A stretch of DNA of 63,992 bases, the filler included, from Collodictyon triciliatum (lineage: Eukaryota), in assembly GCA_043381765.1 (NCBI GenBank). It is 11 parts of 11 records of this genome, joined end to end, with 100 filler letters (N's around TTAATTAATTAA, not from the genome) between each part and the next. Parts side by side here need not be neighbours in the genome. Positions count along the whole stretch, not along the records: positions 25,183 to 31,371 come from JBHJMP010004654.1; 10 more parts are not named here. One strand, written 5' to 3'. A program made the position numbers and the translations under genes. Of the stretch, positions 29,190-30,500 are shown in pieces; position 1 is the first letter of the stretch; each line of letters opens with the position of its first letter. The notes beneath the pieces are model-generated. The model did no database searches. It had not been told where the DNA came from and saw nothing but the letters and a program-made list of their open reading frames with translations.

Positions 29190-30500
29190 GTAGGTCTCTT
29201 AAACATGTCTTATTTGGCATGGAGAAGCGCATTTTGGACGTGACTCTTTTCTTGCCGAACTCTCTTTTATTTACTAGGAGTATCCATCTTTCGAATGGTA
29301 AACCTGGTGCGATGGTACCCAAGGCCTCACCACTTTTTTCACAAGTGTCGTGTAACGTGATTTCTTACCTGTCTCATCCGCCATATAAACCATATTAAAC
29401 TTGCCTGCGTCCACTCAACTAATTTTTATTCGCTAATGAAGATAACTGCTCTTCGGAAAGTTTATCTAAATAAACATATTCATAGATTTTTGATTAAATT
29501 GGAATTTTGAATTTGAAATCACTTTCTTTTCAAACAATAATGGCACCACCAAGTCGTTTGTTTGTATCATGTATATAAAATTGGATTCTCTTTGATGAAA
29601 GAACCTTTTCTTCATTTCAAAGAATTCATCCCATATGGTCTCTTGGCATCCTGATATATTCTTCATTAATAATTTTTTTTCTAGTTGATACTAATATATC
29701 TATCAAACATGCAGTATCTAGAGTAATATGACATGTTATATTGTTAGTTCTTATAGAGACTGGTTGAAACAGTGTTTGGCTCCAATGCTTTCAAAAAATG
29801 TGATTCATGTAAATCACAGATGGAATGTACTTATTTGGATTGCCTTTGACATCATATTAAATACTATTTACAACATCGCTGGGAATGATACGATGAAGGT
29901 GCGTTATAGCCCATCCTTTATATTGCTCCGACATTTCGAGATTCTTGAAGATGACTTTTTTTCTAACTTTCGTATCTCTGCCTTTTTAACAGCTTCCATG
30001 ATATTCTCATCTTTAGGAACTGTCTGATTTATAAAGCGCAGTAACCTCTTTACAAAATGCTCTTTAATGTTATTATGATAAGCTGTTAACATTTGCTTCG
30101 CCAAAGTACGGTAATACATGAGACAGTCCAATCAACTGAAAGCGTTCTTCTCGGGACAAAAAGAATCGGAAATCATTGAGATATAAATTCATCATTTCAT
30201 TACTCATATCTGGATTTTTTTTATAAATGCGGGTCTATCTTGTGAAACTACTCCGACTGTCTTTAAAGCGTACAGAAAAAAAAACATTTCATTGATTGTT
30301 GGGAGTTGTTGTAATTTCAATATGTAACATCTTGCAAACAGATAAGTGTCGGTAACTAAATTATGACACAATAAAACCGTATCGTTGATTTTGTCGTAGT
30401 CATCCGCATTCTTTACAATCGACTTTAAAGATGTTTTTACATTTCGATAGTGGTTTTATAGACTTTAATGATCAGACTCGAGACGTTTTCTTTTCTTCAT
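29190..30500 (-). pseudogene. Decayed Fanzor1 (eukaryotic TnpB-derived RNA-guided nuclease) gene from a transposable element
   Basis: Intronless and AT-rich. Fragments in shifting frames: YRNVKTSLKSIV...INDTVLLCHNLVTDTYLFARCYIL...LPTINE; LAKQMLTAYHNNIKEHFVKRLLRFIN; YDVKGNPNKYIPSVIYMN; LFQPVSIRTNNITCHITLDTACL; IWDEFF...MIQTND; RuvC-I-like LV(G)VDAGKFNMVYMADETGKKSRYT. Several stops and frameshifts. Confidence 0.82.

Follow-up and report, generated by a model that had tools for sequence, protein, structure and literature searches.

A 3'-truncated, frameshifted Fanzor1 pseudogene upstream of RIMOC1 in Collodictyon triciliatum

The block upstream of RIMOC1

The window analysed here is a 63,992-nt stretch of the Collodictyon triciliatum genome (assembly GCA_043381765.1), made up of 11 parts joined by filler letters, and is eukaryotic in style as a whole, with GC-rich coding islands set in an AT-rich background. 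Its minus strand carries, upstream of the first coding stretch of RIMOC1, a block of 1,155 bp (hereinafter designated the relic) that extends from an ATG at 30500 to ~29346 and is homologous to Fanzor1 nucleases (Table 1). The block had been described from the sequence as AT-rich and intronless, and both properties are borne out by a GC content of 0.323 and by an alignment to relatives from which intron-sized insertions are absent. No second copy of the relic is found in the window. Further away, 20719-22137 (+) encodes the N-terminus of a phospholipid-translocating P4-ATPase (E 1.6e-14), and 47937-48482 (-) a PHO80-type cyclin domain (E 2e-5). The window also contains, at ten places ~6.29 kb from one another (6194-62869), paired N runs of 44 bases separated by 12 bases, which look like deliberate masks and unlike gaps in the assembly, as well as longer N runs at 19910-20578 and 57248-57734.

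Table 1 Features of the relic and its surroundings (positions along the window)
Feature	Position	Strand	Remark
Fanzor1 pseudogene (relic)	29346..30500	-	Colinear with P0002 residues 1-385; search E 4.2e-40; GC 0.323
Relic start codon, retained	30498..30500	-	First six residues MKKRKR, identical to P0002
KTSLKSIV	ORF 30204-30455	-	
NNIKEHFVKRLLRFIN	ORF 29904-30131	-	
YDVKGNPNKY	ORF 29791-29856	-	
LFQPVSIRTNNITCHITLDT	ORF 29626-29790	-	
IQTND	ORF 29466-29690	-	
VDAGKFNMVY	ORF 29274-29414	-	
MRFSMPNKTCLR	ORF 29092-29364	-	
In-frame stop TAA	29857..29859	-	Aligned to a residue in relatives
In-frame stop TGA	29791..29793	-	
In-frame stop TGA	29415..29417	-	Immediately before the RuvC-I motif
RuvC-I catalytic Asp codon GAC	29409..29411	-	Asp in 114/114 relatives
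Spacer, relic end to RIMOC1 ATG	29025..29345	-	Contains the MRFSMP string; no C-terminal-half homology; GC 0.436
RIMOC1 first coding stretch (exon 1)	28401..29024	-	ATG 29022-29024; GC 0.671; His-rich repeat
(TAA)18 microsatellite	30582..30635	.	82 bp upstream of the relic ATG
UvrD-helicase N matches	32877-33125, 33533-33892	+	Pfam
UvrD_C matches	35116-35301, 37106-37351	+	Pfam

An earlier note on this DNA had placed a Fanzor1 element at 29190..30500 on the basis of seven short peptide strings. All seven are present on the minus strand in the order claimed (29092-30455), distributed over two reading frames with stops and frameshifts between them, and the upper limit of the proposed extent coincides with the retained ATG. 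The lower limit has to be moved, with detectable homology ending at ~29346 (~29300 at most) and not at 29190. The seventh string, taken as a terminal remnant of Fanzor1, does not belong to the relic: the ORF containing MRFSMPNK is unmatched by the family profile described below, and the alignment past 29346 is noise (20 of 74 positions identical, 21 gaps).

The identity of the neighbouring gene as RIMOC1, and its position on the same strand as the relic, are upheld by two minus-strand matches to PF17716 (RIMC1), one at 28401-29198 (E 1.3e-5; 25 bits, equal to the cut-off) and the other at 27784-28086 (E 2.2e-4). RIMOC1 exon 1 includes a His-rich tandem repeat at 28438-28502, with a period of 6/12/18 and a long His/Tyr/Gln run, and a ribosomal protein S19-domain exon lies tail-to-tail with the gene at 27012-27386 (+; E 3.4e-21). 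As the MRFSMP string is not homologous to Fanzor1, the relic ends ~322 bp upstream of the RIMOC1 ATG, more than twice the ~150 bp that had been proposed (166 bp when counted from 29190). The shared orientation and the position of the relic end this far upstream of the ATG would fit a scenario in which the dead relic has been taken over into the promoter or 5' regulatory region of RIMOC1, but this is one case only, in which co-orientation has even odds, and we consider such a take-over improbable.

Neither terminal inverted repeats nor informative direct repeats are found in 28900-31300, the inverted pairs of this region being two A/T-run pairs of 14-15 nt, and a transposase remnant is detected neither as a domain in ORFs of at least 55 aa at 30.5-47 kb nor as a match to viral-locus ORFs.

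Homology to Fanzor1 and the missing C-terminal half

Fanzor1 proteins are eukaryotic and viral relatives of TnpB and Cas12 that cut DNA with an omega RNA, encoded at the 3' end of the element, as their guide. We translated 29904-30455 of the minus strand, reading stops as X, and searched the resulting peptide (P0001) among longer proteins. The search returned four proteins from 212 candidates: P0002 (648 aa, E 4.2e-40, 53% identity to the query), P0003 (331 aa, E 1.7e-38), P0004 (644 aa, E 4.2e-14) and P0005 (645 aa, E 9.4e-13). Compared with the structures in the PDB, P0002 matches three solved Fanzor1 proteins, from Guillardia theta (GtFz1, 9cer; E 2.1e-28), Parasitella parasitica (PpFz1, 9cf0; E 2.7e-24) and Spizellomyces punctatus (SpuFz1, 8gkh; E 3.7e-23); apart from these, two myoglobins (E 0.38-0.62) are the sole rows at E<=1, and no Fanzor2 or TnpB structure is among the matches at that threshold. 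When the relic translation is compared with the PDB directly, PpFz1 (E 0.003) and GtFz1 (E 0.022) are recovered. These direct matches are consistent with the assignment and weak when taken alone, so that the Fanzor1 identity advanced in the earlier note, which we corroborate, rests on the transitive link from the relic to P0002 and from P0002 to the three solved nucleases. The precomputed label on the protein-search matches is PF26935.1. A Pfam search with eight relic pieces gives nothing above the cut-off, the best match being DUF5958 (E 0.0018, 19 bits versus 23.6).

The family to which P0002 belongs is large: at E<=1e-3 it comprises 3147 cluster representatives, and at the stricter E<=1e-30 still 537. 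A profile HMM of 627 positions, built from 114 full-length relatives, matches nine minus-strand ORF pieces of the relic in strict order from position 9 to position 388, six of them at E 1.4e-17 to 5.7e-4 and three weakly (E 0.029, 0.032 and 0.4). Together with the E 4.2e-40 protein match, this colinearity places the peptide strings far beyond chance. The homology is also confined to the locus: 146 of 173 family proteins match the window in tblastn, with all HSPs falling at 29061-30554 and none outside 29000-30600.

The catalytic residues of the family are nearly invariant among the 114 aligned relatives, with Asp364 and Glu555 in all 114, Asp604 in 113 and the adjacent Arg603 in 112; Ser559 is likewise universal, Thr558 occurs in 109, and the zinc-finger cysteines at 562, 565, 587 and 590 are each found in 90-95. 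These conserved residues fit D-x-[TS][TS]-x-x-C4-x-RD, the Fanzor/TnpB motif described by Bao & Jurka 2013 (PMC3627910). In addition, 11 of 16 relatives match PF07282 (Cas12f1-like TNB; OrfB_Zn_ribbon), with a best E of 2.2e-7.

The relic retains the basic N-terminus, the stretch alignable with the N-terminal portion of the solved Fanzor1 proteins, and RuvC-I. Judged by alignment to those proteins, this corresponds to the N-terminal 60% of the gene, through the first RuvC segment. The RuvC-I motif reads VDAGKFNMVYM in the relic and VDPGKFNLVYM in P0002; its aspartate is the only catalytic residue left, and the proline next to it, present in 112 of the 114 relatives, is replaced by alanine. The MKKRKR sequence at the N-terminus would be in keeping with the nuclear localisation signals that Fanzors are reported to have (PMC10312701).

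Everything further towards the C-terminus is missing, as the earlier note had maintained for RuvC-II, RuvC-III and the zinc finger. Across the window as a whole, profile positions beyond 388 are without any match at E<0.1. The RuvC-II glutamate with its Thr-Ser pair is absent, window-wide profile and tblastn searches giving no homology past position 388 of 627; the C4 zinc finger (TNB, PF07282) and the RuvC-III Arg-Asp are absent from the whole window by tblastn and profile, and Pfam detects no zinc finger in the eight relic pieces. Since the C-terminal half is missing, the 3' end that supplies the guide RNA of intact elements would have been lost as well. Rfam gives no match over 27000-33000; an omega RNA is identified neither for the relic nor for its subfamily, for whose guide RNA there is no model.

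Relatives of the relic and the giant-virus copies

The sequences closest to the relic are short fragments, P0176 (77% identity over 139 positions), P0178 (75% over 135) and P0175 (61% over 134), followed by the full-length P0002 and P0007 (both 59% over 372) and by P0003 (57% over 320). No full-length relative closer than P0002 emerged from a search with P0176, which returned three proteins from 163 candidates. In P0175 (139 aa, on a 714-nt contig), the N-terminal 40 residues are unrelated to the family and are followed by good homology, a pattern that a further frameshifted relic from this clade, on another record, would be expected to show.

Scans with P0002 as a single query found relatives in none of 36 viral-contig stretches and none of 184 metagenome-contig stretches. 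With a 16-sequence alignment (A1) as the query against IMG/VR, relatives turn up in 297 of the 335 candidate stretches, and 79 loci were kept (L001-L079). Many of these lie on contigs of giant-virus metagenome-assembled genomes (GVMAGs) of up to 254 kb, and the ORFs, mostly intact, are 496-664 aa long in 78 of the 79 loci. Single giant-virus metagenome genomes can contain two or three full-length copies (L047, L055 and L078; L026 and L048), which suggests that the element moves or multiplies within viral genomes.

The abundance of full-length relatives on giant-virus contigs raises the question of whether the relic derives from an endogenised giant-virus fragment, with the AT-rich, broken and intronless-looking ORFs at 32.9-43.4 kb (a UvrD-like helicase and DUF4062/NACHT/TPR pieces) belonging to the same insertion; the contrast between the AT-rich relic and the GC-rich host exons beside it would agree with such an origin. 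The phylogeny points elsewhere. We computed an unrooted FastTree phylogeny of 240 rows over the relic-covered columns, comprising 78 viral ORFs of at least 450 aa, database proteins of at least 450 aa and ten named shorter sequences; one 289-aa viral ORF and the remaining shorter proteins were left out. In this tree the relic clusters first with P0175, P0176 and P0178 (support 0.99) and then with P0002, P0007, P0026, P0003 and P0008 in a clade of nine (support 1.0). None of the 78 viral copies falls in this clade of nine or in the next clades around it, of 13 and of 20 rows (support 0.835 for the latter), and the best viral identity to the relic (L003, 39% over 363 positions) is well below the 59-77% reached by sequences from outside IMG/VR. 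The tree has no root and includes database proteins whose origin is not known, so that it indicates a separate lineage and gives no direction of transfer.

The neighbourhood of the relic likewise speaks against a viral insertion. Among the 761 ORF pieces of the window, matches to the viral loci are confined to six, all of them from the relic; conversely, 221 of the 230 HSPs produced by 1830 viral-locus ORFs fall in the relic, both comparisons being weak tests in that the viral side extends over +/-8 kb around the viral Fanzor genes. The other nine HSPs are weak (E 3.6e-4 to 7e-3, uncorrected for 1830 queries). Matches of the UvrD piece are of the generic helicase-motif kind, with 24-38% identity and on non-GVMAG contigs (28/51), and the NACHT piece gives 0/19. 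Virus-hallmark genes are not clustered with the relic: only the Fanzor pieces match viral loci, and no hallmark Pfam domains were found. The viral-locus, helicase and NACHT comparisons thus lend no support to the view that a giant-virus insertion has decayed into the AT-rich block, and we regard a giant-virus origin of the relic as quite improbable.

The ORFs in question have features of their own. The UvrD-like helicase pieces are spread over several ORFs in 4.5 kb of AT-rich DNA (32877-37351, +) and represent either an intron-rich gene or a pseudogene. Downstream of them, at 38324-43356 (+), fragmented DUF4062, AAA_16/NPHP3_N (NACHT-like) and TPR_12/TPR_10 matches follow one another in successive ORFs, which is how a STAND NTPase with TPR repeats is built; the gene is apparently broken or intron-rich.

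Lesions, interpretation and known nucleases

The lesions of the relic were mapped with a purpose-written, frameshift-aware protein-to-DNA alignment using P0002 and P0004 as references. Compared with P0002, the relic has 221 of 382 positions identical, 7 gap positions, ~8 frameshifts (near 30471, 30452, 30219, 30104, 29964, 29681, 29484 and 29426) and 3 in-frame stops; compared with P0004, it has 6 frameshifts and the same 3 stops. Added to the absence of the C-terminal 40%, these lesions substantiate the proposal that the copy is dead. That the gene is in fact intact and broken only in appearance, by introns (which are possible in Fanzor genes according to the preprint of Jiang et al., PMC10312701), an unusual genetic code or errors in the assembly, which shows N runs in the window, can be set aside as very improbable, since the alignment is colinear with shifts of 1-2 bases only and no intron-sized insertions, since stops of two codon types (TAA, TGA, TGA) stand opposite different residues of the relatives and no single codon reassignment rescues them, and since the C-terminal 40% is wholly missing.

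We therefore interpret the block as a 3'-truncated, frameshifted pseudogene of a Fanzor1 gene borne by a mobile element, now most likely neutral intergenic DNA, and we assign this reading as a whole a probability of about 0.9. A Fanzor1-bearing mobile element would have inserted in the spacer upstream of RIMOC1, and the copy would then have lost, probably by deletion, everything 3' of approximately codon 385-400, that is, the RuvC-II glutamate, the TNB zinc finger and the RuvC-III aspartate that are absent today. The element's right end and its omega-RNA region were presumably lost along with the C-terminal half, and the remaining sequence would have acquired its frameshifts and stops, leaving a relic that should be able to make neither nuclease nor guide RNA. 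On this account the lineage of this eukaryote was once invaded by a Fanzor1 element. For annotation, the block is better masked as a pseudogene or repeat than called as a set of small ORFs.

The relic in itself is minor, being another dead copy and an ordinary, known kind of genomic fossil. The Fanzor family was reportedly described in 2013, with biochemistry and structures following since 2023, and the only mildly new point here is a small separate Fanzor1 clade with intact 648-aa members from environmental contigs. These members, P0002 and P0007, keep every catalytic residue and might merit a look as compact RNA-guided nucleases. A bolder extension, which we consider unlikely, is that the relic's lineage (the clade of nine), distinct from the giant-virus copies, is perhaps cellular and includes working members, or alternatively or additionally that the relic has been kept in the control region of RIMOC1. 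If such working members exist, a compact, active RNA-guided nuclease that has a guide RNA of its own might be present in the source genome or in close relatives of it.

Among known systems, the relic shares family and motif with the Fanzor1 elements, degenerate and single-copy, reported by Bao & Jurka 2013 (PMC3627910). Decayed coding sequences, single-copy occurrence and virus-borne copies all appear there, and the carriers of Fanzor1 are given as large DNA viruses and transposons of the Mariner, Helitron, IS4, Sola and MuDr groups. Unlike those elements, the relic has no inverted repeats or transposase found beside it, and no carrier is assigned. The giant-virus Fanzor1 copies from IMG/VR belong to the same subfamily, with identities of 34-47% to P0002 and of 37-39% to the relic.

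Nuclease activity and structures of Fanzors have been published (PMC11423790, PMC10312701, PMC10711439). P0002 matches all three solved Fanzor1 proteins (GtFz1, PpFz1 and SpuFz1) over both halves, and its family shares with them both the C4 zinc finger and the catalytic triad of Asp, Glu and Asp; the catalytic residues given for SpuFz1, D383, E541 and D606 (PMC11423790), compare with D364, E555 and D604 in P0002. By contrast, the relic is comparable to the solved proteins over the N-terminal 60% only, in frameshifted form, with one of the three catalytic residues and without the zinc finger. Fanzor2 and the TnpB proteins of IS607 and IS200/IS605 belong to the same superfamily, sharing the RuvC fold and the TNB zinc ribbon (PF07282), whereas the long N-terminal half here is of the Fanzor1 type.
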